A stretch of 63,104 nucleotides of DNA, counting the filler, from Globobulimina sp. (lineage: Eukaryota), in assembly GCA_003354225.1 (NCBI GenBank). It is 15 parts of 15 records of this genome, joined end to end, with 100 filler letters (N's around TTAATTAATTAA, not from the genome) between each part and the next. Parts side by side here need not be neighbours in the genome. Positions count along the whole stretch, not along the records: positions 42,157 to 46,268 come from PIVH01001597.1; 14 more parts are not named here. One strand, given 5' to 3'. The notes beneath the pieces are model-generated. The model saw nothing but the letters and a program-made list of their open reading frames with translations. It was not told the origin of the DNA and made no database searches. A program made the position numbers and the translations under genes. Positions within the stretch are counted from its first letter, which is position 1. The number at the start of each line of letters is the position of its first letter. Positions 4,118 to 63,104 of this stretch are shown here, piece after piece.

Positions 4118-4217
4118 NNNNNNNNNNNNNNNNNNNNNNNNNNNNNNNNNNNNNNNNNNNNTTAATTAATTAANNNNNNNNNNNNNNNNNNNNNNNNNNN
4201 NNNNNNNNNNNNNNNNN
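4118..4217. other. Artificial contig-join spacer. The same spacer recurs at 8335, 12552, 16769, 20985, 25201, 29417, 33631, 37844, 42057, 46269, 50479, 54689 and 58897.
   Basis: 44 N + TTAATTAATTAA (stops in all six frames) + 44 N, repeated 14 times. Segment lengths between spacers never increase, running 4117 to 4108 nt. Confidence 0.99.
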
Positions 4218-8334: not shown

Positions 8335-8434
8335 NNNNNNNNNNNNNNNNNNNNNNNNNNNNNNNNNNNNNNNNNNNNTTAATTAATTAANNNNNNNNNN
8401 NNNNNNNNNNNNNNNNNNNNNNNNNNNNNNNNNN

Positions 8435-9122: not shown

Positions 9123-10878
9123 TCAATAATTCATATAGAAGGGATACGGGGAATGTTGACGTTGACTCTTTGGCAATCTCAGCCAATTAACAAATTGCTT
9201 ATATTCCACCATATCGCGTTGATGAAATTTAGTCTTCGAATCCATAAATACAAAATTTGAGAAATAATCAGGAGATATTTCATTAAGATGGAGATTAAAT
9301 TGATTGGATAACTGATTAAAAGCATTCATATCATATCTTGACAATAAATCAGCAAAATCATTAAACTCAGAAGGAATCCATTCGAAGAACATATAAATTT
9401 TATATTTTATTAACTGTAAACAAAGCTCATAAACAAAGATCATTACTGAGTAGCGACCGGACCATTTTCTGGTCATCGCATAGAAACAAATGGAATTATG
9501 AATTGTATAAATGAACAGATTTCCCAGTTAAGATATGTTTGTATGACTCAACTAAGGTAAGGACGCAATGAGCTTCCTTTTGATGTATTTTCCAGTTCAA
9601 ATGTTGATCAATAAATTTATATTTTGCATAAACAGAATCAACAACAAAACCTGCGCCTTTATTGCAAGCGTCTGTCGCCGCATAGATATTAATGGATGGC
9701 TTGCGAATTAAATTAAGTATTGGGACCGAACGGATATAAAAAGCATATTTGAGCCAGAATTTAAGATCATTGATGATCGAAAGTGGGAGAATTATCCAAT
9801 CTGTTTTCTTAATATGTCCATTACGGATATTTTGATGGATATAATATATCGAATTATAAACTAAGGCTTTCGTATTTGGGTTAAGCTGGCTCCAATGCAT
9901 TATTTTGCCAGTTAAGGACTCCAAAGCACGGCCTGAGACAACTCTGTATTGAATGACCCACGTTATAAATTTCTTTAATTGTAGGAAGGTTTTATGTGGA
10001 ATCTGAGCAGTTTGGTGACGGAGATTCCATTGTATTCCGTGAACGACTGACTCTTGGCATGCATGGACAGATTTGCCGTGGGAAACGGTCACATTTAACT
10101 CTTTAAAGAGGTCATCAAAGATCTGCTCCATTAAGAGACAGTCTTGCTTGGTTTTTGTGGCCATGGTAAAGTCATCAACGTGGACACGAATCGAATTTAA
10201 TAAATGAGGATATTGGATATGTAATTTGCAGTTATTTATAATCCAAACTAACAAAGTTGCAAAGTATTGACAGTTTGCAGGAGCTGATGATACTCCGTAT
10301 GGTTGTTTTCTGTCTCTGAACCGAAGACCGAATAAGGAGTATCCCAAGAAATCAGAATCGATTTCGGGTAATCCAATTTGCCTAAAAAAATCAGCTAAAT
10401 CGCGTAAGGCAAAATACTTTTTATCATGGAACAATTTGGCATAATCTTTCAAATTTGGAAGGTCAATCATGGCACATTTTTCTTGACGGATCCATTGATT
10501 AATGGCGGTGGTATTTATTGTATGGAAGGAACCATTGCGAATGACTCGGACTTTCGTATAAAAACCAAAATGGTCTTTTTTGGGGACGGCAAATATCATT
10601 ATAACATATTTCGGATCATAGTGAATGGGCTCAATTTGACCATTCTCACACTCGGAAATTATTTTGTCAACAATAGCAATCGCTTCTCTGTTATATATAT
10701 ATTTCGATAAATTAGATGGATTTTCTTGTTTATTGAAGGTTTTCAACCATAACGGAAAGCCATTTTTAATAAATTCTAATTCTACTTTGTCGTTCTTCTT
10801 GTTTTTTAAGTAACGTTCAAAGGCGTCAATATTTAACGCATTGCGATATTTCGAGCCCTCTTTGTGAAGCTGTTGCAA
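9123..10878 (-). pseudogene. Reverse transcriptase-RNase H of the DIRS-like element, frameshifted at about 9500
   Basis: RT motifs GFPL, VPKKD, DLADFFRQI, PYGVSSAP, HVDDF. RNase H motifs TDAC..GAG and HQKEA, then WIPSEFNDFADLLSR in the next frame (9123-9476). Confidence 0.9.
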
Positions 10879-12317: not shown

Positions 12318-12651
12318 ATTTAATAAATGTTTGAGGGTGATTGGGTCTATTAATTTGGGTCAAAATTAGGTAAAAAGTATGTATAAAAAAGTGAGTTTCT
12401 CAAATTTGAAAGCTGTGCATAAAATTGTATGCAGATTGTATACATTTGAAACGTTGGAAAGATAAAACTCAGAGAAGGGTAGCCTCAGATTACGGCTTCC
12501 ATTTAATCAGAGCAAAGGAGAGAAAAAAGAACCAATAAACGGGATCTTTCCNNNNNNNNNNNNNNNNNNNNNNNNNNNNNNNNNNNNNNNNNNNNTTAAT
12601 TAATTAANNNNNNNNNNNNNNNNNNNNNNNNNNNNNNNNNNNNNNNNNNNN

Positions 12652-37031: not shown

Positions 37032-38096
37032 AACTCTCATTTACCAAAATGAATCTTTTGTTGTTTAATATTACTTTTTGAAACGGTTTGCCTTTTAAAC
37101 AAATAATTCTGAAATTTTGTTCAAACCATTTGTTTTTTTGTACCAGCATTCAAACAATATGCAATACACACACATCGATTGTTTTCGAGATAGCAAAGTA
37201 GAAAAGTCAATAGTAATTTATCAAACACGAATGCTATTTACCGAAGGTATATTTATAAGTCGATATAGAAGAAGAGGGCTTGCCTGAGGCTTCGTATCGA
37301 GGCTGTACAAAGACCTGTGGTATTGGCATCGTCGTTGATACATTATTAATGATTATTTTATCAGAGACACAACACATACAACAAAAATAACGTAACATCG
37401 TAGTATACCATTGAATTTTGAACTTTTAGATTTTATCGAATCAAAGCAAATATCCTAATAAAATAACATATGAGAAAAGATATGTCTCATTTGCACGGAC
37501 AAACTGTTGGTCATTTTCTAAGTCTCAAAAATAAAAAGTAGAACGGTTTGAATATTATCAAATGCCATTGCCAGGGCTATCTTTTGGTGCAATCCATTCC
37601 ACTTTTCATTTTCGGGACTGCGAAAATTGTCACAAAAGTTGTCATCTACTCTGGCCTCGAGTTCGAGGCCACAAAAAGTTCAAAATTTAATGGTATACTA
37701 CGATGTAAAATTAGAAGATATGCAACAAACCAAACTACATGATCTGAGATGAAAATTTATTTCATACTCAAATAATGCATACATACAACGTACAGAATAA
37801 TAATAAATGTATAAAATTAATATCCATTAAATGGTGGTGGTGGNNNNNNNNNNNNNNNNNNNNNNNNNNNNNNNNNNNNNNNNNNNNTTAATTAATTAAN
37901 NNNNNNNNNNNNNNNNNNNNNNNNNNNNNNNNNNNNNNNNNNNTTTTTTTGAGCATTTTTATCAATATCCATAAAAAATTCTCTGAGCCCATTGAATAAA
38001 TATTAGCTATTTTGGAAATAATCACCTTTTAGAGCCCATTTCGCCCTTCAGCGACAATAGATATCTGATCAAACGAGATTTACCACTTTTAGCCAA

Positions 38097-42156: not shown

Positions 42157-43081
42157 GAGCAGATTAATAGGTTCAGATGATTTATTAAGTCACATCTATC
42201 AATGGTTAACATCCAATGAATTAGTAAACAAATATTTAAATCCTGAAAACATTCGTTTTAGGAAAGTGGCAGAGTCTGAACTGAAACAAAGAGATTTAGG
42301 AACTGCAAATAATACAATACACTCAGACGATTATGCAAGATTAATAAATGCATTTATGAGCGAAGAAAAACAAAATGTAACAACTGCACGCACCGCAAAC
42401 AGATTAAATTTTGGTGAGAATTTCAAAAAACAAATAAAAACAACATATTCAAACATGATCGGTTCAATGATTAATAGAAAAATAATAGAATGTCAGAGGT
42501 CCGGTGGGGATTTAAAATTAAACAAAATATTTGGAAATTTGAATAACTCAAACGATGTGTTACAATATTTGAAAATTGCTGACCATGCATTTAAAATTCC
42601 AGCATTCACTGTCGTTGAATTAAAAGGCAATAATTTAGATTCATTACAAAAGTTTTTATTTGAAAGTATTGAATGTTTATTCATTGCTAATAATAAGTTT
42701 ACGCGGTTAGATCATGAAACATTTGGTATGTCATTCGCTGTGAAGTATGTTTATATTTCTAATAATCCAATTCAAGGAGTTATTGATTTCAAGGCATGCA
42801 ATTCTACTCTTACAATGGCAGAGGAGTTTGATATGAAAGGATGTAAATTTGTAACAAGACTTGTAAACATACCCAAAACATTACGATTTCTTAACATTTT
42901 CAATTCATACATTACATCACCAAATCAATTAGAATTTGAGAATGGCATTGGATTAAACTCTGTTATAATGAATCGTAACCAATCAAAACTGTGGAAAACG
43001 TTTTTCCGTGAAAATGACATAGAAGTGCGGGTTACTACACATTCAGAGGAAACATTAATGTGTCTGATAACTGCTGTTTAA
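42157..43081 (+). CDS. F-box-like plus LRR protein, 5'-partial
   Basis: Frame open from the contig edge: DDLLSHIYQWLTSNELV...RFRKVA, then LRRs (VELKGNNL, LFIANNKF, VYISNNPI). Confidence 0.65.
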
Positions 43082-43214
43082 CCAATTGGTGCATATACCA
43101 ATACGGCAATTAATATCAACCATAATTTACTATATTCTGCATTTATTGAATATTATCAATTTTTGTTTTTCCTAAAAACTATCCTTGCAAAACTTGTGTA
43201 ACTTTAAATTGATA

Positions 43215-43955
43215 ATGGCAGATAAAGATAAAGCATGGTTCTGCAGGTTTGAAAAGATCTGGTTATCAAACCTTCCAATCGATATCTTTTCAATCTTTAC
43301 ATGTTTGATAAGATTATAAAAAGCTTGAGAAGATTGAAAGGTTTGATAACCAGATCTTTTCAAACCTGACTGCAGTGCAGATAAAGGAAGACTTGGGGTA
43401 TTTGGAGGTGTTTGTGGATTGATTGCAGTGATTTGCATCATTATTGCAATGATTGCAAACAATATCACTGGTTATAGTTATGTGGGAGGAATATTGCAGT
43501 TAAGATATTCAATGACATGTCGGTGGCATACATTCGATGGTTGTTGGGCCTCAGTTTGTGTAAATGGGGTAAAATATAATAATTATTGTGATGATGAAAA
43601 TGCACCGTATGGTAATTGGTGCAAACAAAGAAGTATTGGACAAACCTGGATTGCAATGTTATTGATGTCATGCATAGTTACAGCACTCGCTGTTTTATCC
43701 GTATTTTTATCACATTTAAAAAAAGTGCAAGGATTTGTTAAATGGCTGTTTTGTATAAGTTGTATATTGTGTATGATTGCAGTTTTTTCGTGGATTGGAG
43801 GTAGCGGTGACACGCATTTGTGTTATGACACTGATTATGTTGGATTATACTTGGGAGCAAGTTTTATATTTGCAGTGTTTGCCAGTGTTTTCAATCTTTT
43901 TGCTTTTGGCTTTACGTTTACATCAAATGAAGGTGACTACGAAACATTGCTTTAA
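43215..43955 (+). CDS. Four-TM claudin/PMP22-like membrane protein, 2 exons
   Basis: ATG 43215; intron 43247-43375 gives MADKDKAWFCS-ADKGRLG; four hydrophobic helices and a Cys/Trp-rich first loop. Confidence 0.75.
43244..43368. mobile_element. MITE-like element with 31-bp perfect terminal inverted repeats, forming an intron (introner-like)
   Basis: CAGGTTTGAAAAGATCTGGTTATCAAACCTT (43244-43274) is the exact reverse complement of 43338-43368. Confidence 0.85.
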
Positions 43956-44408
43956 ATCAACATCATCCATTATACTTTGTTTTTGTTGTATATATTCTTC
44001 GAGTATTCTATTTTTTTCTATCCTCGCACATAAAGGGAAATTGCGCACTGAGTGCGAGGATACAAAAAATAGAACACTTATGGACAAAGGTCCTCATGTT
44101 CTTATTTGTGCAATTGTGTACAGCCACGAGTATGAGTGTTTATTTATGAATACTGCTCTTAAAACAAAAATAAAATAAAATAAAAACAAAAAAACGTTGC
44201 TATATTATATACGGGAGTAGAATTTTGCTCATTTTTTTCAAATATATTTGGGAATTCTTGTATTTAATATTTAGGCAAGATTACTGAACTTCCTTGCTTA
44301 AAAACTTTTTCTTTTTAGTGGTATCAGATTATACAACTTGGGGATCTCATTATTTTCTTAGTTATTTATTTATTGATATATACATATAAGTAAAAAAAAA
44401 AGGCCGTT

Positions 44409-46202
44409 TCACTGACTTATTTCAAGAGCAACAGAGCCAATGTTTGTATATTCGAGTGAATCGCCAATACTGCATCTATTATCATTGTATCTGGCAAGTT
44501 TGTTATCCTTATTCGCAATAAATGATAAAATAATAGTTGCAATCTTAGTGTTTCCAATACAGTCCATAACGACAACATTTCTTTCCAATGTTCCATAAAT
44601 CGCTTCAACATTATATAAGGAGGGATCATGACCACTTGTCAATATCTTTGATATATATCCAGTATAATGTATCTGTTGAATTAACCCAATTAGAAACGGG
44701 ACTGTTGCTCCAAGTAAAACAACATAAATCAATGTAACTGTTGTGATTAATAAATGTTGATAGTTATCATATTCATCAGATAACCAATTTGTAATTCCCA
44801 GCGGAGCATTATAATTAAGATGATTACGCGCTAAATAATTGATATGATAAATATAAATATATCCAAACCAAAGCATTGGGAAACAATGACAAAACACGCC
44901 AACTATAACCAACATATTCAATGATATCCAAACACAAATACCAGTCAACAAAGTGTCATCCGGACTGAACCAAAATTGTATTCTACGAAACACTGATTGA
45001 TGACCAATGACTGCATTTATATATTGTTTCTTTTCTGTATTATTCAGTTTCATAAATTCATATTGATATTCATAACAGATTCTACTTAAAGTATCATGCT
45101 TTGATATCATTAATTCATCATTTGGCTCATTAATATTATCATCTTCATGTGCTTCTAATTCTGATTCACTGTTTTTTTTTAATAGCAATGGCGAAATGGG
45201 TGACATTGGGGTTATTGTTATACTTTTAATTCTTTGTCGTGATGTTATTTTTGATGGAATTTGATTATGGATACTTTTAAAACCCAGTGAATTGTAAGAA
45301 TGAGTCGCAACATGTATGATACTGTACAATTTATCTACAATGTTTGCATCAATTTTATTGTTTTCAAATAAAAAGGGATAATATAATTTAATTGTGGTTC
45401 CATTCAAATATTTAAACATAATAAGTGTGCCTAGAAAGGGTATATTTGGAAAGAGATAGGTAAGACATGCAAGTAATACAAGCCATTCTTGAAAGGAGTG
45501 ATTCTGTAAAAACGCATCTGTTTTCACCATAAAACCCAACAATAAGTACCATACTAACAATATAAATTCGCAGCAACATAATAACTTAAATGCATAATGT
45601 GATATGGTGCTGATTTGAGTAAACATAAACATCAAAATATGACACATTGCGAGTAAAAAGGCACAGGTTAATGCCCAGGAAGATAGATAGTAATTGCAAA
45701 TGATTAGAAAATGCAAAATGGTAAAACATGATACAACAATTAATTGAGATATGATGATCATAGATTGAATGTCTTCGTCGGTAACATAATATAAATAAAT
45801 GCATAAAAAGAATGGTGAAAATATGCTAATGATTGATATTGGAATTATGGATGGAATGAATGCGAGACATATCAAACATTTTGGTGTCGATCGGCGAGTT
45901 AAAATGCAACAATGGTAATGTGATGGTACACAAACACCACACGTTAATACAGCAAACAGCCCCGTAAATATAAGACATGGTAATATTTCTTCATTGCCAG
46001 TCCAGGCCATTGATATGTAAAAGATAAAAAAGAATAGAAATGCACTAAAATAAATTAGGACTAATAATGAAATGGATAATCCAAAATAAACATATTCCTG
46101 ACTGTCCCATAATTGGTAGGTTATCAAATGACTGCAGAGACCAAAATGTAACAAGAATGATATATTGAGGAAGGTAGACACTGCAAAAGGCAACACACTC
46201 AT
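44409..46202 (-). CDS. Multi-pass membrane protein of unknown function
   Basis: 597-aa intronless ORF with about 10 hydrophobic segments. Confidence 0.75.
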   Translation of the reverse strand: MSVLPFAVSTFLNISFLLHFGLCSHLITYQLWDSQEYVYFGLSISLLVLIYFSAFLFFFIFYISMAWTGNEEILPCLIFTGLFAVLTCGVCVPSHYHCCILTRRSTPKCLICLAFIPSIIPISIISIFSPFFLCIYLYYVTDEDIQSMIIISQLIVVSCFTILHFLIICNYYLSSWALTCAFLLAMCHILMFMFTQISTISHYAFKLLCCCEFILLVWYLLLGFMVKTDAFLQNHSFQEWLVLLACLTYLFPNIPFLGTLIMFKYLNGTTIKLYYPFLFENNKIDANIVDKLYSIIHVATHSYNSLGFKSIHNQIPSKITSRQRIKSITITPMSPISPLLLKKNSESELEAHEDDNINEPNDELMISKHDTLSRICYEYQYEFMKLNNTEKKQYINAVIGHQSVFRRIQFWFSPDDTLLTGICVWISLNMLVIVGVFCHCFPMLWFGYIYIYHINYLARNHLNYNAPLGITNWLSDEYDNYQHLLITTVTLIYVVLLGATVPFLIGLIQQIHYTGYISKILTSGHDPSLYNVEAIYGTLERNVVVMDCIGNTKIATIILSFIANKDNKLARYNDNRCSIGDSLEYTNIGSVALEISQ

Positions 46203-46864
46203 TGACTGGCGTTGTTTTTTTTAAGCTAGAAAACTCTCCACAATCATCAATCATGGTTGATTATTCCANNNNNNNNNNNNNNNNNNNNNNNNNNNNNNNN
46301 NNNNNNNNNNNNTTAATTAATTAANNNNNNNNNNNNNNNNNNNNNNNNNNNNNNNNNNNNNNNNNNNNAAATGTTGCTTGCAAATATGACAATTGTTAAT
46401 TGAATTGAATTTTTATTGACGGTGTTGATTTTTGTTTTGTTTGAATGGCCTCAATTAGATCAATAAATATATTGTTAACATTTGTTGTGGCCTGTGAACA
46501 GTGCAGTGTTATCCCATGAAAGTCGTTCTTATTTGTTGTTTGTGTATGATTGGACGAAACAACGTTGCTGAATTTAATTATTTGTTGCTCGGAGTTTTTA
46601 ATCCTCTGTCGGAAGGAAAGATTTATTTAAGCTGGTTTTCATCTTATGACGCGACTAAAAACAAATATGAACATAAAAAAAAAAGAACTTAATACTTACA
46701 ATGCAAATTAGAAATAATTAATTAAAGGATGAGGGCAACAAAAATGTTATAATTAAATATTGAATCATCGATTTTATCCAACATACACTTGATCTTTGTC
46801 CATCACACAACATGCACAGAACTAACATGCACAGAACTTGAACACGTAGACAAATGAAAAAAAA

Positions 46865-51183: not shown

Positions 51184-54100
51184 ATGATGAACGATAATAA
51201 CACACAGCGTCTATATAACGACACCAACCCGGCAATTATTAGTAGTCATGACATTATTGGTCATATTTCGCATTATTAGAGTTATTTTGATCAATCTGTA
51301 TCTTTGTTATCTTTGAATATCAATGGCCTGTTTTCACGGACAGGAAATGGCGAATTTAACACAGAAAAATTGGATGTTTTAACTGATATCATTATGGAGT
51401 TGGAACCGACTTTTGTTATATTGCAGGAAGTTTGTATCCATTATAAGGTCGATATACATCCTCCAGATATTGATGGTTACTTTAATAAAATAAATGAGGT
51501 GCCAATGTATGATCAGATGTTAAAGACTGTTATTTATGTACAAAATGAGTTGCGTGAATATGTAGATATCGTTCGAATTGATACAGTGACACAAGAACGT
51601 ATCATCCGTGATTTTGTTGATCCAACTACCTTAATTAAGGCAAATGGGCACTATTCTACGTGGATTGTGATACATCCTGGACCCGATACAATATATAGAC
51701 AATCAATTTTGTTAAGCGCTTATTATCGCTCTCCGAATCGTGATCTGACAGTTCCTGATCTGAAACTATTTAAATATTTCATGGATTATATTATTCTGCA
51801 CTATAAACAGAAGCGATGGATTAATGAGGCTTTGCAGCAAACAAATAATAGAATTAATTTGATTATTATTGGTGGTGATTTTAATCTGCATAATGAATTA
51901 TATTCGCGTTTGGATTATGCGAGTTATAACAAACAAGATCGATCAGAGTTTGTATGGTTAGATAGCATCATTGACAAGAAACGTATATCCGTTGTTAATA
52001 CGAAACGAATTGCGACACATTATCGAGGCAATGTATTGGATCTTCATTTGATTTCTGATAAACTGCTGCAAAATCATGATAATTATGTGATAAAATATGA
52101 TGATTCTCAACGGATTCGTTTCTCTGACCATTATTTTTTGTTTACAATTATGCATTTGCCTTTTCATGAAGCTTCATTTAAATGCCATCAGAATCCATAT
52201 TATAATGTTGCAAATATGCATTATCGTTTTAGTTGCCCTAAAACGCTTTATTTGTATCAGATGTATACAGTGAAACAATTACGCGAATTACAACAACGCA
52301 TTGAGGTATTAACCGATTATAAACATGATGTTATTGACAATATTGCGCATGATTTTTATTGCATTATTCATCATAATGCGGCTCGATATATTGGCAAAGC
52401 ACATAACCATAAATATCAACATCGACAGGTTTGGTGTACCAATGCTATCATTGATATGAGTGCTAATTTGAGACAGATCAAACGAGAGTGGCTTTCTTGT
52501 AATGATAATACGCAACGCGCTGCCAAACATTTGCTGTATAAACGTTGCAAAAACCGATTGAAAGCTTCCTGTATTAAAGCAAAGAAGTTGTATTTACAGC
52601 GAAATATGGATTTAACTATTGATGGTACGCGAGATATATATAAATCTATGAGGTATCTGCGCAAAATTAGTTCAGTTGCGCGCCGAAAGAAATATGTTCA
52701 GTAGTCATACCAAAGCAAATTTGTTTGCTCGTAAATTCTGTTACCGTTATCTGAAGGAAGTACCCTATCAACCATTGGAACGTTTGCGTTTCAAACATAT
52801 TCCATTCTGTGATAATATCTATAAATGCACGCATGTAATGCAAACTATCTCTGATGATATCTTGGAAGCGAATACAGTGACTAATCCTCGTTTGTTTCCT
52901 AATGATTCTACTCATAAAAATGCAAATGTTACCATAATACAGCCGATCTCTCGTCATTTAATCAAATTATACTACGAATAATGAATAAGCGGTGTAATCA
53001 CGGTATTGGTCTGCATATACAGTTGTTACTGTATCTTAATCCGTACATTGTTGATTTTTTGTATATATATTTGAATCTGTTCTATCGCTCTGGATACTTA
53101 CCACGGATACATAAAATTACGTATATTACACCAATAGCGAAGCCACGGCGTGATCCGCATTATATTGATAACTATAGAGAGATCTCTCTGAATGGATGTA
53201 TTAAAAAGATGTATGAGATGTGCTTATTGTATAAAGGTATCGAATTTGTGATAAATTGTGACTCGATACACCCCAATAATACTACTAATATGAAGGGGAA
53301 ATCGACGCGGGACATAGTTGCATTATTAATAAACGACATTGATGTTGGTTGGAATAAACAGATCCCGACATATGCAATTTTCTCTGATATTTCGCAAGAT
53401 TTCCCGTCGCTTTGTTATGATATTTTGGTGCAACGTCTGCATCGTTATTATGGATTTCCTATGAAATATATACAAGCTATTTATGATTTGTTTGTCAATT
53501 GCTGGTGTGCTGTCATTGTAAATGGAGTGAGATCGCATTGGATGCTGCAATTAATTGGCTTAGCACAAGGGCGCCCATTGAGCCCTTTCCTTAATATGCT
53601 TTATTTAGATCCTTTGTATTATGTGATACCGTCATATTTGCCCATAAAATTGTATATTTATGTCGATGATTTGGTGCTGTGGACGGTTTTGAAAGCTATA
53701 TTTGTTTATGATATTCAATATGGTTTGCAATATGCCATCGATAATATTATTAGATGGCTTCAACTGAATGGTATGTCTTTATCTGCGAAAAAGACGAAAT
53801 ATATCATCTTTCGCACCAATAACATGGATAAAAATTATCATATTCCCGTCCCACAGTTACATATCAATAATGTGGTTAAAACAGAGCCTGAGAAATATGT
53901 CAAATATGTTGGATATTATTTGACGTATAATTTATCCGCACGTACTCATATTAATCATATTGTACAGAACATCTTTTTGGATTACAGAGCAATGAAAAAT
54001 ATTCGTTATCGATTTCGGCGATTTCGTGTTAAAAAATTGTACCATTATATACACTCTGTAATATTATCCAAAATCGAATATCCGGTATTGCTGTTTGGCT

Positions 54101-54688
54101 GTATTTCCAATCAGAATGATATTAAACCACTGAAGCAAATGTATTATCGTGTTATAAAATTGCTGTATGGTGCATTAAATACGACGCCTTTGGACATTTT
54201 GTCCATTTTGACGTCTTTATTGACATTAAATTGATCCGTTTGTGGGTGAGTTTGTTGTATATTCATGATCGTAATATATTGTATACTCTAATTACCACAC
54301 AATGGATGCCAGTATGGAATGATTATATGTTATCCACAGTGAATATGCGTACACAGAAACCGAAGTTACTGTATATGAAGACTTATGATCGGAAGAATCC
54401 TTTGTTCCGCATCTTTTTATTGGCAATGAAGTACAAAGTATTGCGTTTAATTCATTATAATTGGCGTTTTATGATTAATTCGCATGGCCGTAAAATCAAA
54501 TATATCCCATCTTTTGTACCTAAGTGTGAGTATTTTGTGTTTGTTGATGGTTTATACACAGAGGAAGATACAATTAACCATTCTGATGTTACTTTGTATA
54601 CTTTTACCGATGGATCAATAGTTAATACAAACTGTGCAGGCATTGGTCTCTTAATTGAAATACATCAGATCCATCATCATGTTTTGAG
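51184..54688 (+). mobile_element. Degenerate non-LTR retrotransposon ORF2: APE endonuclease - RT - RNase H
   Basis: APE motifs NING, LQE, YRSP, GDFN, LD, SDH. RT motifs PIAKP, NYREISL, DISQDF, GLAQG.PLSP, YVDD, KYVG. RNase H motif FTDGS..AGIG. One in-frame TAG near 51277 and three frame changes (~52690, 52981, 54232). Confidence 0.92.
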
Positions 54689-54974: not shown

Positions 54975-57900
54975 TCAATGACATACAATATCATATTGAG
55001 TTTCTATCAACAATAATGATTTTTTATTATTATTCCATTTAATTTTCTTGTTATAAATAGTCAACTCATCTAACCGTAATTTACCGAATAAAACTTGAAT
55101 TCTATAGCAATAATTCTCTGTATCCACACAAATTAACGACGATGAACCTGTTAACAATAAAGGAACACATTCATTTTTATTCTTAAATGGTATTAAAGGC
55201 GATATTTGTAACCGATAAAAACTATTTCTTTTATCATATTTTTGCTGATTTAATGCCAAAATCAAACTATAACCTATCAATTGGCGATCATAATGAGAAG
55301 TACAGCCAGGTCTTGACGAAGGCGTGTTTGGCGGAACAACATTTTCAACTCCGCTGGTTACACAAGACAATGGGTTTTGAGCCGGAACTGTTGACTTTAA
55401 CCAGCAATATGGCTCTGTATTACTGAAACTTTGACACCCGGGGTAAGTATGCGGTGGTTGGTATGTCCAAGCCATACATCCATTTGTTTCACCACATAAA
55501 GACTCACATAACATATAATCCGCTCTACTTAATATATGCGGTGAACCTGGCATATCAGAGCCAGGCAAATCAATTCCAATCATAGTCGTATTATACACAT
55601 CAGCATAATAATGCGATAATATTCTGTAATCCCATTGGTCTTTGTATAAATCCGCATATTTATTTAAAATAGTTTCGAAATATGTGAATGCGGAATTTGT
55701 GTCATTCAATAAATACACATACAAAGAGCCAGAATTCAATGTAAAATCATCCCATTTATCTAAGTCTGTAAACTTACCGGAGTTACTAGAGCCATATGCG
55801 CAGTGATAGGAGAAATTGGACATATTTACATTAAATATGACACCATATTCATTATATGGCAAATAATTCCATTCATGTTCTCTTTGTAAATGTGATACAA
55901 ACATATTTTTCAATGTTGCATCCATTTCAATATCAATATCCAGCACAAATTTCCATAACAAACCATATAAAGTATCCCCTTGCAATGTATTCCTTGAATA
56001 CAAACTATTTGCACAATAAAATGAGATAAAATTACCATTGTCAGCATTCCATAAAAGTTGAGTTAAATTAGCCTTTGCATGTCCAATCTCAGCATTCAAT
56101 ATATTTGTCATATTAATATCATTTAGCGACTGCGACATTTCTTTCATAGCATACAAAGCCACAACATAAATGATTGAATTATAACTGTTCAAATCTCCAA
56201 TAACGCCATGTTCGTCAAATGTATTTACCATTTTATAAGGCAATGAATAGCCATTCTTGATGGCATTATTCATACTGTAAAATATGGCTTTTTTTGCAAA
56301 TGGATACGATTGTTTCATAAAAGCATCGCCGTTTTCTGCCCACTTCCAATTCATATAAATATCATAAATAAAAACAGGATTATCATCGCCTCGCGGGTCT
56401 CCATTCGGTGTATCCATTTTATACAATTTGCCTGGATTCGCGCAACTGCCACCAAAATTTTCTGACACCATGCCTTGTTCACCGAATATTCCATTGGATG
56501 GTAGCATTTGCTGCATATATAATGTAGTTAATATATTTTGATCTAACTCTGTAAAAAAAAGTTGATACGGCAACTTTCTATAATATCCGACATGCGGTGG
56601 TTCAATTTGATCACAATCAAAAGCTTCTAATTGTCTCCAACGACCATCAGCGAGATACATTGATGTACGAACTAAATATGATGCTGAATTGACATAGAAA
56701 TCTTTCAAATATTCTGGATACGCATTGTTATACATTAAGTTATGCCAATTTTTTGTATTATTTATTATTTCCGCAATGTTCTTTATAGTAAAACTATTTA
56801 CATCCTCTGAATCTTTGTATAAATTGCTGTAATACTGACCAATAAAACCGTTATCCCATGTTCTATATGGAAAGTAATATGAAAATGAATAAACTACACT
56901 AACGACCGAATTTGCTGCTACTTTAACGGCACCATTGCTTAATGCATATTGTGTTTTATTTGTAACTGCTTTCATATTTTGTTGTACATTTTGTGTAACA
57001 TTGCCATTTAAGAAAGAGTCCCACATTAAACGCAATGTATCATATTGGAAAGCTTTACCATTTAATTGCAGGCAATTGGCACTGGACAAACATTGATAAG
57101 TTGCCATTGTAATATTGCCACTTGAAATTGCAACGCCTTGTTTGTTGATTGTAAATCCATTTGTATTGTACGCTGATAATGTGTCAAAATGCATATTTTG
57201 ATCAGGGAAATTAAACACTAAATCAACAGTTATATCTTGCGCGCCATCATTGATTAAATCCATCACAAACAGTACGCCGGGAGTGCTATATTAGTATAAC
57301 ACACAAATTGCAAATATAATTATATAAATATGTAACAAACATACGTTGACATATTCATATTATGTGGTTTAAATGTTCCAAATGCAGTCAAATTCACATT
57401 GAATCTGTATTGTTGATCCCAAATGGTGTGATATGCGGATAAACGGGCGGTTGGATACGCGCCTTGATATTGTAAATTTTGTACTGCATAGTCTTGCATA
57501 TGGGCTTCCTTTTCTTGATTGGTTTCAAGTTGAGTCCTTAATATTTTTGCCGACGATTTGTCACTGTTTATCATAACACCAAACATCATCTCATTGAGAT
57601 CCATTTTATGCCAATTATTATCGGGCCATGCACCTGGGCCATTATTGTAAATCAATGAATCGGTAAAGCGGCCATCCGCTCTCATTTCAAAGATACCGCC
57701 ACCCATTGAACCAAATGGTACGGATGATCTCAGGCCTGAAGGTGGTGTTGAATAGGAACCATTTGGCTCTTTTTTAAATAACCAGCCTAACTCACCAACT
57801 TGAATATTATTATTATTATTTGGATCGTCCATATACATGTAACCCTCTTGGTAATTGGATGCAAGATTTACTATTTCAAACGACGAGCTCGAATCCACTG

Positions 57901-58464: not shown

Positions 58465-59371
58465 ATTGAAATTGGCAGAGATAGATCAATGTCGTATTGA
58501 TCCATCTAGATGTCTTAAAATAATTCATTAACGACATCCTTGTTATGTTCGTTTTCGGACTTTTTCCGATTAAATTTAGAACTTTATATTGTATGCTCAG
58601 CGTTTTTTGTTTGAGTGCACGGAGTAAGGATTACGCAGCGTTTTGATGACTCAACGATACATTTTTTTCAATTATCTGAGAAACTGTTTTTTTCTTGGAT
58701 TTATATTGGGTTTGTTATAACTTTGTCTTGGGTTTGCAAATCTAGCACAAAATTATAACAAATGTATAATTGAATTTTCGGTATACAAATGGAAGGGCTT
58801 ATCTTGGAAATATCATTCAGTGTTATCACCTCACACAACAAAATTCAAATATTCGCAATCTATAAATGCTGTTCTATCGTTGTCATATGACGGTGTNNNN
58901 NNNNNNNNNNNNNNNNNNNNNNNNNNNNNNNNNNNNNNNNTTAATTAATTAANNNNNNNNNNNNNNNNNNNNNNNNNNNNNNNNNNNNNNNNNNNNAGAA
59001 TCACAATCATTCCAACATCACAACTCACTCTTTGAATTACAAGCAGATTGTTATCTCTACCAACAGCAAACTGCATTGGACATTTCACAAATTTACGTTG
59101 CCATTGTCAACTGACTAGAAAGATGTAAAAAATGCATTTTTCCAACCAAACATCAAAAAACTGTAACTACACACACTTGCGAACATTAACAAAATCGAAG
59201 AAAATTCTAGAAAATTCTTATTTTGATTTATTTTATCATTGCACTCACGCAAATTCGCAAAACATTTATGTTTAATTTTTTAAAATTTTAATTTTTTATC
59301 CTTACACTCGCTTTACGCAATATTTTTTAATTTTTGTTTTGCAATAACATATAGTACATCAAACACGTGGA

Positions 59372-60448
59372 ATGAAACGAAGTAAACCCGTTTGTTGGCT
59401 CAATAGTAGTGCACAACGTTTCAACGTTATACCTTGGCCTAGTGCTTTTTACACTTATATAACAAAAGAAAGGGATGCATTCGCAGTTACATTTAATTTA
59501 ATTGCTCAATTACGTGCAAAAAAAACTCAACCAATTTCAGCTGATCAATGTAACAAAGCTGCACAATATTTTATTGATTATGTTAACTATCAAAAAACAA
59601 AAATAATAACGGATAATATTAAAATATCCGATGAGAAATGGGACATTGGTATTGAGCAAGATGCTGAAGCATGCGTCGGTTATTTTTTGAACATGATCGC
59701 GGATTTAAAAGATGACAGAGCCATACCAGATGCTTTAACTGTTACTGCTGAAAATATTACGATCATTGACACAATGCAAAAATTTATTAGAAATAATTTT
59801 GCGTTTGCAACAAGCGATTGGTTAAATTGTGAAAAAAAACAAACTGGGCATGTTTGTAATACAGTTGCACAATATATGTTAACTCTTGATTTACCTGTTG
59901 ACAATTCAAGCTGTTCATTACAACAATTAATTGAAATGTATATAAAATCAGAGCCAGTAGATTTATTAGAGTGTGAACATTGCAAAGAAAATCATTCAGA
60001 TATTAAACAAACAAAATTTGCACAACTATCAGAAAAATATTTGATGATTCATTTAAAACGCTTCATCTTTGATGAGTCCGTTTCAATGCAAGGCATGAAG
60101 AAAAACAATGCAGTTGATTGTACAAAACATGTTGTTTTAAACTGTAATGATATATATACTGCGTACAAAGTTATATCTGTAGTTAATCATTATGGAAACA
60201 CTGTTCAGTATGGTCATTATTCCACTGACATAGCAACACCTAATGGTTTTGTAAATTGTAATGATGACCGAATTAAAAAGGTTTCACATTTTAATCCCAA
60301 AGCATGTTATGTTATTTTATTAGAAAAATTAAATAATCAACAAGGTTCTGTAGCTATTTCAAATTACATTTCTAATTTAAAACATTGTGGTAACCAGACT
60401 TCATCAGTAAACAAAAACAAAACAAATACTAAACCCAAATCAACACAA

Positions 60449-60479
<31 letters not shown>

Positions 60480-63104
60480 AGAATTTTGATATGTTGTTCC
60501 ATAGAGCGCCTTCAAAACATCCCAAAACTCCTAACTCTCCAAAAACTCCCAACTCTCCAAAACCCTCCACTAAACCTAAAACAACACAAAAAACTGCAAA
60601 AAAAGCAACACACAAAAAAATCAAAAGAAAGCAAACATTTACCCCTCAGCAAATTACTAATTATCGAAAAATGGCTATACAAAATAATATTACTAAAGAT
60701 TATACTGAACCGGAATTAAATTGTAAAACATTAACTGAACTACTTAGTATATGTAATAAATGGGAGATTCGGGTTAAATCAAGTAAAAAAAAAAATGTGA
60801 TTCAACAGATTTACAATCATCGTCGCAACCAACCTTGGTTCAGGGCATATATTCAAAAATATTTCAATCCCAAACCACCACCAACTAAGAAACGTAGAGT
60901 TGCTTCATTTGTTTTTCCAAAATCAGGAAAAACACCCAAACCTACAAAACATCCAAAAACTCCTAAACCACAACTAACTACAAAACCTACAAAACCTCAC
61001 AAATCTCAAAAAAAATCAAAATACTCGAAAACTACAAAAAGCACTGAAGAATTGCAAAAAATTGATGTTAATTTACAAAAATTAGAGCTTAATACAGCTC
61101 CAAAAGCAACTTTCGAAATAATGGACAAAATTAATCTTTGTAAATTAGCAACTTCATTTCCTGCTGGTTGGACTAAAAAAATTATTAAACAATTGCAAAC
61201 TTTGCAAAAGCAAAAAGGTAAAATATCAATAAATGATTTTTGGGCTATACATACAAAAATGGGGAAGAGATCAAAAATAAAATCTGATAATATCAAATCA
61301 TGGCAAAAGAATAACGTACAAATTTTGTTTTATGGACAAGATTTTGTAGAAAATGTGTGGAAGAAAAAACAAATTCCAGTGAAATTTGCTGATAATGTTT
61401 GTGCATTTTGTTATAAAAAATTTCATTCCAAAAAAGCTGTAGCAGCACATCGCACAAAATGTAAGAAGTTTATCAGAAAAAAAAATGCACAGATTAAAAG
61501 AAAACAATATCATGTTGCAAATTATGACCCTGTTGACAGGCATGAAAAGTATGAAAAAAAAGAAAAAGAAAAAAACCTTAAAACAGACAAAGAAAAAAAT
61601 GAGGAAGAAAGACTCGCTTACTGGAAAACAGGCAATCCAGACAATAAATTACACGATCAACAGTTTACTAAAAAAGCAGCCCTCAAATTTCATGAAAAAC
61701 AAAAAAAATATCATTTAATACAATGTCAAGAATGTTTTGAGCGATGGTATAGAGCTTTAAATTTACAATTTATACAAGAAAAGAAACATCATTGCAGTGG
61801 ATGTGCAGAATATTGTCCACAAAATACAATACCATATTATTGCCAAAAATGTAAAACTGGATGATTTTATTGCAATAATTGTGTGAATGAAAAAAAAAAC
61901 AAAAAATGTGAAAACGCAAAATGCCAAAAAAAAAACAAAAAATATGGCTCAAAAATATTAAAAAAATATATTTGTTCGAAATGTGAGTTACAATTGAAAA
62001 AAATTAAATGTAAAAATCCAGAATTTTCAGTTACATTGTTTGGAAAAGCAAATAATATGCACCCAGGTACTTTCCCAAAATTCGTGCAAGAGATGACAAT
62101 GATAGAAAGATTATTAGTTTCTCCCATAATTCACAAAGCACCCATTTATAGAGTTAAAGGAGGATCTCACCGTTATGCTGGAAATATTATTAATTTCATA
62201 CAACATACTGAAGAAATTATTGAAGAACTTCCGCGATTACCGCAAGATTTAAACATATTAATTATTAGGAGCTCACAAAACAGTTTAAAAAAAAATAAAA
62301 ACTTTGAAATTAATCGCAAACGTGTACGCGAATTTTGTCATTGGGCAGTAAACCAAAACTTACCAGGATGGAATAAAATTCGAGTCTCTGAAGAAAATAT
62401 TAATAAATTACCAGTAAATGGTGTACCTGAAACTCTACCTACGGTTATAGATGATACAATAGATGAGATCGAAATAGCTGACGGACCTGGCTATAATGAT
62501 GCATATTTGGACAATGAAAAAAAAAATGAAAGAGAAGATTCTGATGAAACTGCGGAAAAACCATTCATTTCTTGCGGCATAACTGTTCCAGGCAAAGAGC
62601 AATTGCAGTCTAAAAAAATTGAACACATTTTAAATTGGCCAAGCACAGACAACAACGCAGTAAGCGAATTTTTAACTAGTAGTTTATGTAGCAAAGTATT
62701 CCCCACATTATTTCCTAATGGAACAGGAGATCCCACAAATTCAAACAGAATTCGCAGTGTAAAAGATTTTGCTGCTGCTGTTAAACATTTGCTTAAGTTT
62801 GCGTACCAACAAGAAGATGGAAAATGGTTTTACCCTTACGCAGCACATCCAACTTTTGCATTTTGGTGTTTAAATATGATACAAAGACATAGAGCCTTAA
62901 AAAGTGCAAATTTATATTTAACAAAACACCCTGAAGATCAAGAATTAACGGTGGAGGAAATTTTAGAGGAATTACAAACTACGAATAAAAAACCACAATT
63001 TTTAAAAAGAATTCAACGTTGGAGTGAGAACATCACAGGTTCCACAGGATATTGGCACGCACACACTAAAAAATTGCGAAATGGACTCGAACAATTGAAT
63101 TCTG
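59372..63104 (+). CDS. USP (peptidase C19) - K/P/T-rich linker - SAP-like - C2H2-like - ZZ-like finger - DUF6570 - Helitron Rep N-terminus; one frame with a single TGA at 61862-61864
   Basis: USP motifs CWLNSSAQ, EQDA, CEHC, IHLKRF, VVNHYG...GHY, NDD. The frame after the TGA is the same as before it. Confidence 0.85.
60451..60480 (+). repeat. (GAT)n microsatellite encoding poly-Asp
   Basis: TGATGATGAT... run directly after the USP domain linker. Confidence 0.9.

Follow-up and report, generated by a model that had tools for sequence, protein, structure and literature searches.

Results

The membrane-protein gene and its surroundings

The stretch of DNA analysed here (63 kb; hereinafter the window) is made up of 15 pieces, each about 4.1 kb long, of which adjoining ones may lie apart in the genome; the insertion locus described below sits within the piece at 42157–46268 (Table 1). 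The window is eukaryotic and AT-rich (30–40% G+C). Among its genes are those for a condensin subunit, a protein kinase and a GH116 glucosidase; it also carries pieces of non-LTR retrotransposons, and a search for tRNA genes found none. An Atlas search with the condensin reading frame returned a mixture of phyla. The only intron in the window supported by homology (57286–57344; 59 nt; GTATGT...TATAG) connects the N-terminal and catalytic halves of the GH116 beta-glucosidase gene, which also has a PAN domain. Eight further candidate introns that join open reading frames (ORFs), chosen by eye out of mechanical lists with much noise, measure 54–68 nt, and the donors hand-picked in the window are mostly of the GTA type.

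The gene at the locus codes for a membrane protein, P0001, whose start codon lies at 43215–17; the first 13 nt of its first exon are the N-terminal codons of its protein family. P0001 matched no Pfam family above the cut-off. Its nearest Atlas clusters are PMP22/claudin-like, and a PMP22/claudin-like four-helix membrane fold is accordingly suggested as a lead only; the Atlas search gave animal clusters (Mollusca, Nematoda, Rotifera) and a ciliate cluster. A word-index search recovered two homologues at 58–59% identity, and an exhaustive search of representatives recovered 15 in all at E <= 0.001. We aligned the window protein with seven homologues picked as full-length and of similar size, leaving aside P0004, P0006, P0009, P0011 and P0013–P0017 as fused, partial or weak. 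All seven begin with a Met placed 3–5 residues ahead of a conserved (Q/R)-hydrophobic-G-G motif, and the two closest begin Met-Ala-Asp-(Lys/Leu). This Met position aligns not with the start codon at 43215–17 but with an AGT at 43374–76, the codon that spans the proposed splice junction.

Table 1. Positions of the features at the insertion locus and of the spacers in the window
Feature	Position	Strand	Basis
Exon 1: start codon, nine more codons and two bases; ends in CTGCAG	43215..43246	+	Sequence reading, frame check
Left copy of perfect 10-nt direct repeat, candidate target-site duplication	43218..43227	+	Repeat search (family D14)
16 nt between left repeat copy and element; starts with a tandem copy of the previous 6 nt	43228..43243	+	Sequence reading
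Element with terminal inverted repeats, 125 nt	43244..43368	.	Repeat search, shuffles, folding, motif count
Left inverted arm, 37 nt; holds candidate donor GT (43247-48)	43244..43280	+	Inverted-repeat search
Candidate GT..AG intron, 129 nt (CAG/GTTTGA ... CTGACTGCAG/T)	43247..43375	+	Frame check; ends of X1 and X2 contigs
Right inverted arm, 37 nt	43332..43368	+	Inverted-repeat search
8 nt between element and right repeat copy; holds AG (43374-75) and AGT	43369..43376	+	Sequence reading, homologues
Exon 2, to TAA stop; membrane protein P0001, about 190 aa, Cys-rich loop	43376..43955	+	Translation, homologues
Right copy of perfect 10-nt direct repeat	43377..43386	+	Repeat search (family D14)
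100-nt spacers between pieces (N runs around TTAATTAATTAA)	4118-4217, 8335-8434, 12552-12651 and so on, to 58897-58996		

A short element resembling a miniature inverted-repeat transposon

Between the start codon and the conserved part of the gene lies an element with terminal inverted repeats. Its arms, 51 nt apart, are 97% complementary with one mismatch, and their outer 31 nt are perfect by eye. A 29-nt string from the arms has two matches in the window, which are these arms themselves (0 expected from 100 shuffles), and the RNA of 43215–43400 folds with an energy of -70.1 kcal/mol (z = -8.7; none of 200 shuffles equally stable). Five of the nine matches to the 9-nt motif GTTTGAWAA in the window fall inside the 125 nt of the element, in both orientations, in a symmetric layout plus one in the loop. 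Repeated binding motifs are typical of small DNA transposons, and because its motif copies are arranged symmetrically the element looks like an organised mobile element rather than a chance palindrome. It resembles a miniature inverted-repeat transposon (MITE) in being small, bounded by terminal inverted repeats and non-coding (stops interrupt the entering frame), and departs from one in its flanks: the bases adjoining the arms, where an abutting target duplication would lie, are TCTG and ACTG, alike at three of four positions. As a transposon, it would be expected to have relatives elsewhere in the genome.

Searches for such relatives were negative within their scope. Sensitive blastn found no second copy in the other ~59 kb of the window, where the best other match was 13 nt. 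A 20-mer of the arm had no matches in metagenome, prokaryote-genome and viral contigs, and a two-ended gapped arm pattern had none in metagenome contigs, all being collections that probably lack this organism. A DDE transposase domain was absent from all 30 long ORFs of the window that were scanned. Because only one copy was found, we treat the locus as a probable single intron gain known from one copy and claim no membership of an introner family for it.

We also considered a microRNA precursor and rejected it: there were no Rfam matches at the gathering score, and the 16 sub-threshold matches (best 45.7 bits vs a threshold of 230), which were to unrelated plant and animal microRNA hairpins, are a generic signal of a long hairpin.

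Probable insertion of the element into codon 5

The element is enclosed by a perfect 10-nt direct repeat, a match length reached by 18 of 5000 shuffled flank pairs and, among 2349 real pairs taken from the window with equal spacing, by 25 (the locus included). Both copies encode Ala-Asp-Lys in frame, the left directly after the ATG and the right after the AGT, and the right copy reads on into Gly-Arg-Leu-Gly, the family consensus; the residues that precede the insertion, taken with those following the right copy, give that consensus. The in-frame placement of both copies at the N-terminus of the family is a coincidence independent of, and beyond, the length of the repeat. Since all seven homologues start at the position of the AGT and the ten bases after the ATG recur there, the fifth codon probably took in about 149 nt, with 10 nt duplicated. 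An ancestral start at the position of the AGT itself was rejected, as the upstream ATG together with the left repeat copy gives the family N-terminus without any base change. Directly observed are the element, the duplication, where both lie with respect to the start of the family, and that the frame is open; that the insertion came about in one event is the simplest construction we would put on them. The near-perfect arms and perfect duplication suggest that it was recent.

The reading that we favour, with restrained confidence, is accordingly a recent insertion of about 149 nt at codon 5 that carried the MITE-like element, made a 10-nt duplication and is most likely spliced out as a new intron. 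The ancestral gene would have run from the ATG at 43215 directly into what is now 43387. Into its fifth codon would have come 43228–43376 (the 125-nt element with 16 nt before and 8 nt after it), with ten target bases duplicated, and this inserted stretch would have brought with it CAG/GT at the hairpin's left base and CAG/ shortly after its right base. The spliceosome would most likely excise 43247–43375 (129 nt), because both of these sites come with the inserted stretch; and the insertion was probably tolerated, because the GT..AG pair at the hairpin base allows it to be spliced out. Splicing would then add ten residues to a short cytoplasmic N-terminus, ahead of the first membrane helix. 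A clean cut-and-paste insertion, in which the duplication would adjoin the arms, accounts poorly for the 16 nt and 8 nt lying outside them. Each repeat copy is adjoined by a short tandem copy, a doubled ATAAAG on the left and a doubled TGCAG on the right; these, together with the offset of the repeat by 16 and 8 nt from the arms, suggest, for this one locus, that the element may have been captured where a staggered break was joined untidily and in part from a template, a route near to that proposed for the new introns of Daphnia.

This account departs in several ways from the sequence-only reading of the same DNA, which had proposed a transposon-driven intron gain. The proposal stands as far as the MITE-like look, the lineage-specific insertion at the coding start and the in-frame GT..AG pair are concerned; it is not supported as to the restoration of the frame and the co-option of a splice site. 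The pre-insertion frame it had reconstructed, WFCSADK, itself contains inserted DNA, because the whole of 43228–43376 between the repeat copies is insertion: all seven homologues begin at the AGT, and 30 extra nt would remain after splicing. The TCTG/ACTG duplication it had named matches at three bases of four, and the perfect 10-nt repeat had been overlooked. Nor, with the 10-nt repeat taken as the duplication, is one splice site carried by the element and the other co-opted from the target, as in the introners it had cited, because the GT at 43247 and the AG at 43374–75 both lie within the inserted 149 nt.

A related scenario would have the 125-nt element alone enter by cut-and-paste with a 3–4-nt duplication, as a classical introner, into a coding sequence that already bore a lineage-specific N-terminal extension of 30 nt; that earlier frame would be restored exactly, and the element would belong to a multi-copy family that forms introns in other genes. 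The inverted arms and the repeated internal motif, typical of small DNA transposons, fit this scenario, as does the removal of 129 nt, which equals the element plus 4 nt. Micromonas introners, as described in the portion of the source used here, likewise carry one splice site of their own and take the other from a duplicated target of 3 nt (PMC11282704); at the present locus one carried and one target-derived site are obtained only under the TCTG/ACTG reading, in which a quarter of the bases disagree. The scenario moreover calls for a separate prior 30-nt insertion, itself flanked by the perfect 10-nt repeat, and hence for two events where one suffices, and no second copy turned up in the window or in three public collections (which probably lack the organism). 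We consider it unlikely.

Evidence on splicing

For the single insertion with splicing, the geometry of the locus is favourable, and here most of what the sequence-only reading had described holds good: an element of 125 nt with arms of 31 perfect positions, or about 37 with one mismatch; a donor GT 3 nt inside the left arm; an acceptor AG 6–7 nt past the right arm; CTGCAG at both junctions (43241–46 and 43370–75); and a TAA in the unspliced message, in which the frame from the ATG stops at 43317 after 34 codons. Read backwards, the frame of exon 2 stays open as far as 43350 and no further; the first ATG in it lies at 43449. The first membrane helix and the conserved N-terminus therefore need a spliced message. 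The claim that the intron is about twice the usual length is plausible: at 129 nt it is roughly double the local norm, the homology-supported intron having 59 nt and the eye-picked candidates 54–68 nt.

Among the 4 GT and 12 AG sites available, eight GT–AG pairs are in frame and free of stops, and an in-frame intron alone is thus weak evidence. Three in-frame donors can pair with the acceptor at 43375, of which only that at 43247 leaves an exon ending in CTGCAG. Against its use, this donor, GTTTGA, has a T at +3, where most donors picked in the window are of the GTA type, and lies within the 37-bp stem. Its use would keep the frame open and leave 30 nt, coding for ten residues found in none of the seven aligned homologues; in this comparison at the protein level, the position is specific to the lineage, as introner positions are.

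Contigs were available from four public runs (named X1, X2, X6 and X8), none recorded as RNA. Record 6 of X1 (658 nt, 3 other letters) matches 43370–44012 and has 15 extra letters, and record 12 of X2 (445 nt, 2 other letters), which belongs to another study, matches 43370–43780 and has 34; in both, the extra letters are known by count only. Because the matches stop at 43370 yet the letters continue, the neighbour of 43370 in these contigs is not the element. A junction of 43246 with 43376 predicts a match reaching back to exactly 43370, because the CTGCAG at the end of exon 1 is identical to 43370–75. Neither of the other two in-frame donors for the acceptor at 43375 would yield this match end, and an element-free DNA allele would be expected to match back only to about 43377. 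The ends of the two contigs agree with the 43246/43376 junction, without proving it. Coverage by the four runs is slight or nil over 42982–43255 and most of the element, a circumstance from which we draw nothing.

These ends have to be weighed against a reading in which the insertion recently broke the gene and is not spliced: either the message would read through to the TAA at 43317, or transcripts would start or end at the hairpin base near 43370, in each case with loss of the N-terminus and first helix. The 43246/43376 joint is not among the joints listed for the contigs, though joints with a 29-letter side are listed elsewhere, and the extra letters, as said, are counts. The 34 extra letters of the X2 contig equal the length of a full sequencing adapter, and adapter-like letters abut 43378 at a nearby contig end, that of a variant in X6; given such letters, the X1 and X2 ends could mark the end of an RNA or a stop of reverse transcription at the hairpin base. 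An X2 contig over the left arm (depth 48.2; 6-nt deletion at 43278; extending over ~43235–43302 by depth arithmetic) is colinear across the donor and represents either unspliced RNA or another copy. In addition, the donor is weak and buried in a hairpin of -70 kcal/mol, and after a recent insertion the frame downstream would by default still be intact. Set against this, two contigs from two studies both stop at exactly 43370, the very position that the splice model predicts, whereas an RNA end at the base of the stem is expected at about 43369 and its recurrence at the same base in both runs would be a coincidence; and an in-frame pair of CAG/GT and CAG/ stands at the hairpin base. We hold an unspliced, broken gene to be a rather doubtful reading and consider that 43247–43375 is probably removed as an intron.

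Relationship to known routes of intron gain

The insertion with a spliced MITE-like element may be set beside several described systems, each taken here from selected portions of the cited sources. In the work of Gozashti et al. (2022), introns derived from introners numbered 27,563 and came from 175 of 3,325 genomes; there were 548 introner families, the target duplications measured 3–9 bp and abutted the element, and among animals only two groups had introners (PMC9860276). Like the introners of Micromonas and Aureococcus in those portions, the present element is a short, non-coding inverted-repeat element that takes up nearly the whole of a candidate GT..AG intron in a position specific to the lineage, with a splice site in or next to the repeat and an intron longer than is usual for the host. 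Unlike introners as portrayed there, which are present as numerous, nearly identical copies in the introns of genes unrelated to one another, it is known from one copy, and in place of an abutting 3–9-bp duplication it has a 10-nt repeat set 16 and 8 nt off the arms; also unlike in introners, splicing here would leave 30 extra nt, and the target would not be restored. In a further reading, the element would be a copy of an active and undescribed intron-making transposon family in a short-intron, AT-rich eukaryote, perhaps an animal: a cassette with both splice sites and short exon-like flanks that makes a 10-bp duplication and, rather than restoring the target exactly, adds a few codons at each insertion. 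Such a cassette mode differs from the modes given in the portions of PMC9860276 and PMC11282704 drawn on here; we regard it as quite improbable.

The tunicate Fritillaria borealis has thousands of MITE-derived introns, mostly with AG-AC or AG-AT ends (Henriet et al., 2019, as cited in the part of PMC11282704 used here). There, as is proposed for the present locus, small inverted-repeat transposons have been turned into introns in which the repeat draws the two ends together; unlike those numerous non-canonical introns, the present candidate is a single instance with GT-AG ends. The nonconventional introns of euglenids, in the account given in the same part of that source (PMC11282704), are also similar in that CAG/CTG inverted ends pair to join the intron ends, with duplication-like repeats at the junctions; they differ in having non-canonical borders and in being removed by unknown means, whereas canonical GT..AG sites are available here. 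Nothing else in the window points to a euglenid-type genome.

In Daphnia pulex, new introns have been ascribed to staggered double-strand breaks, with 33 flanking repeats of 4–12 bp (PMC4202315, in the portion used here). As in those cases, the present locus has a recent insertion into an exon with a short direct repeat (10 bp) and is a candidate for removal as an intron; unlike it, the Daphnia inserts in that portion are mostly unique sequence without inverted ends, and one of their repeat copies falls at the intron's far end, whereas both copies are exonic here. That the insertion is a one-off, non-transposon stretch of palindromic filler DNA from the repair of such a break is very improbable: the whole insertion does lie between 10-nt direct repeats in the manner of Daphnia (PMC4202315), the tandem ATAAAG and TGCAG beside the repeat copies could be taken to resemble templated end-joining, and the window and the collections searched (which probably lack the organism) yielded no further copy, but five symmetric copies of a 9-nt motif and a 31-nt perfect inverted repeat look more like an organised element, and both repeat copies would remain in the message where one Daphnia copy, as far as that portion of the source goes, is intronic.

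If splicing of the inserted MITE-like element is confirmed, the locus would hold a very young intron at codon 5 of a conserved gene, its origin still legible in the intact element, duplication and junction repeats, and its ancestral state readable from the relatives of the membrane-protein gene. In such cases a coding insertion survives by being spliced out, at a cost here of ten extra residues. As it stands, the locus is another example of a known route of intron gain and would work like other transposon-derived introns. An element family in an animal genome would be of real interest, because introners are reported from only two animal groups in the portion of PMC9860276 drawn on here; this hinges wholly on the copy count.

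Other repeats and variants in the window

Pieces of non-LTR retrotransposons, with reverse transcriptase and endonuclease domains, lie at 9496–10878, 51304–52704 and 52981–54234. An ORF with a DUF6570 domain at 61883–63103, perhaps starting at 59372, may be a fragment of a Helitron; this domain goes with Helitron-type helicase genes. A second inverted-repeat element, unrelated to that in the membrane-protein gene, occupies 37388–37713 (326 nt; 40-nt arms at 90%) in what is apparently non-coding DNA, with no ORF of at least 100 aa overlapping it.

Upstream of the membrane-protein gene, a leucine-rich-repeat gene at 42160–42981 draws matches at 80–95% from many short contigs of each of the four runs; this points to a gene family with multiple copies. 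The membrane-protein gene itself is represented in runs X6 and X8 by a variant of about 93% identity (43402–43835), which in X8 is 9 nt shorter near 43392–43401; the contigs of this variant in both runs stop at 43378–43381, exactly at the right copy of the 10-nt repeat. X1 and X2 also carry a low-depth copy of the gene at about 85%, a paralogue. Past the stop of the gene, at 43997–44114, contigs of X1 and X6 have 8 other letters in place of 116 nt, a 3′ length variant whose ends are not GT..AG.
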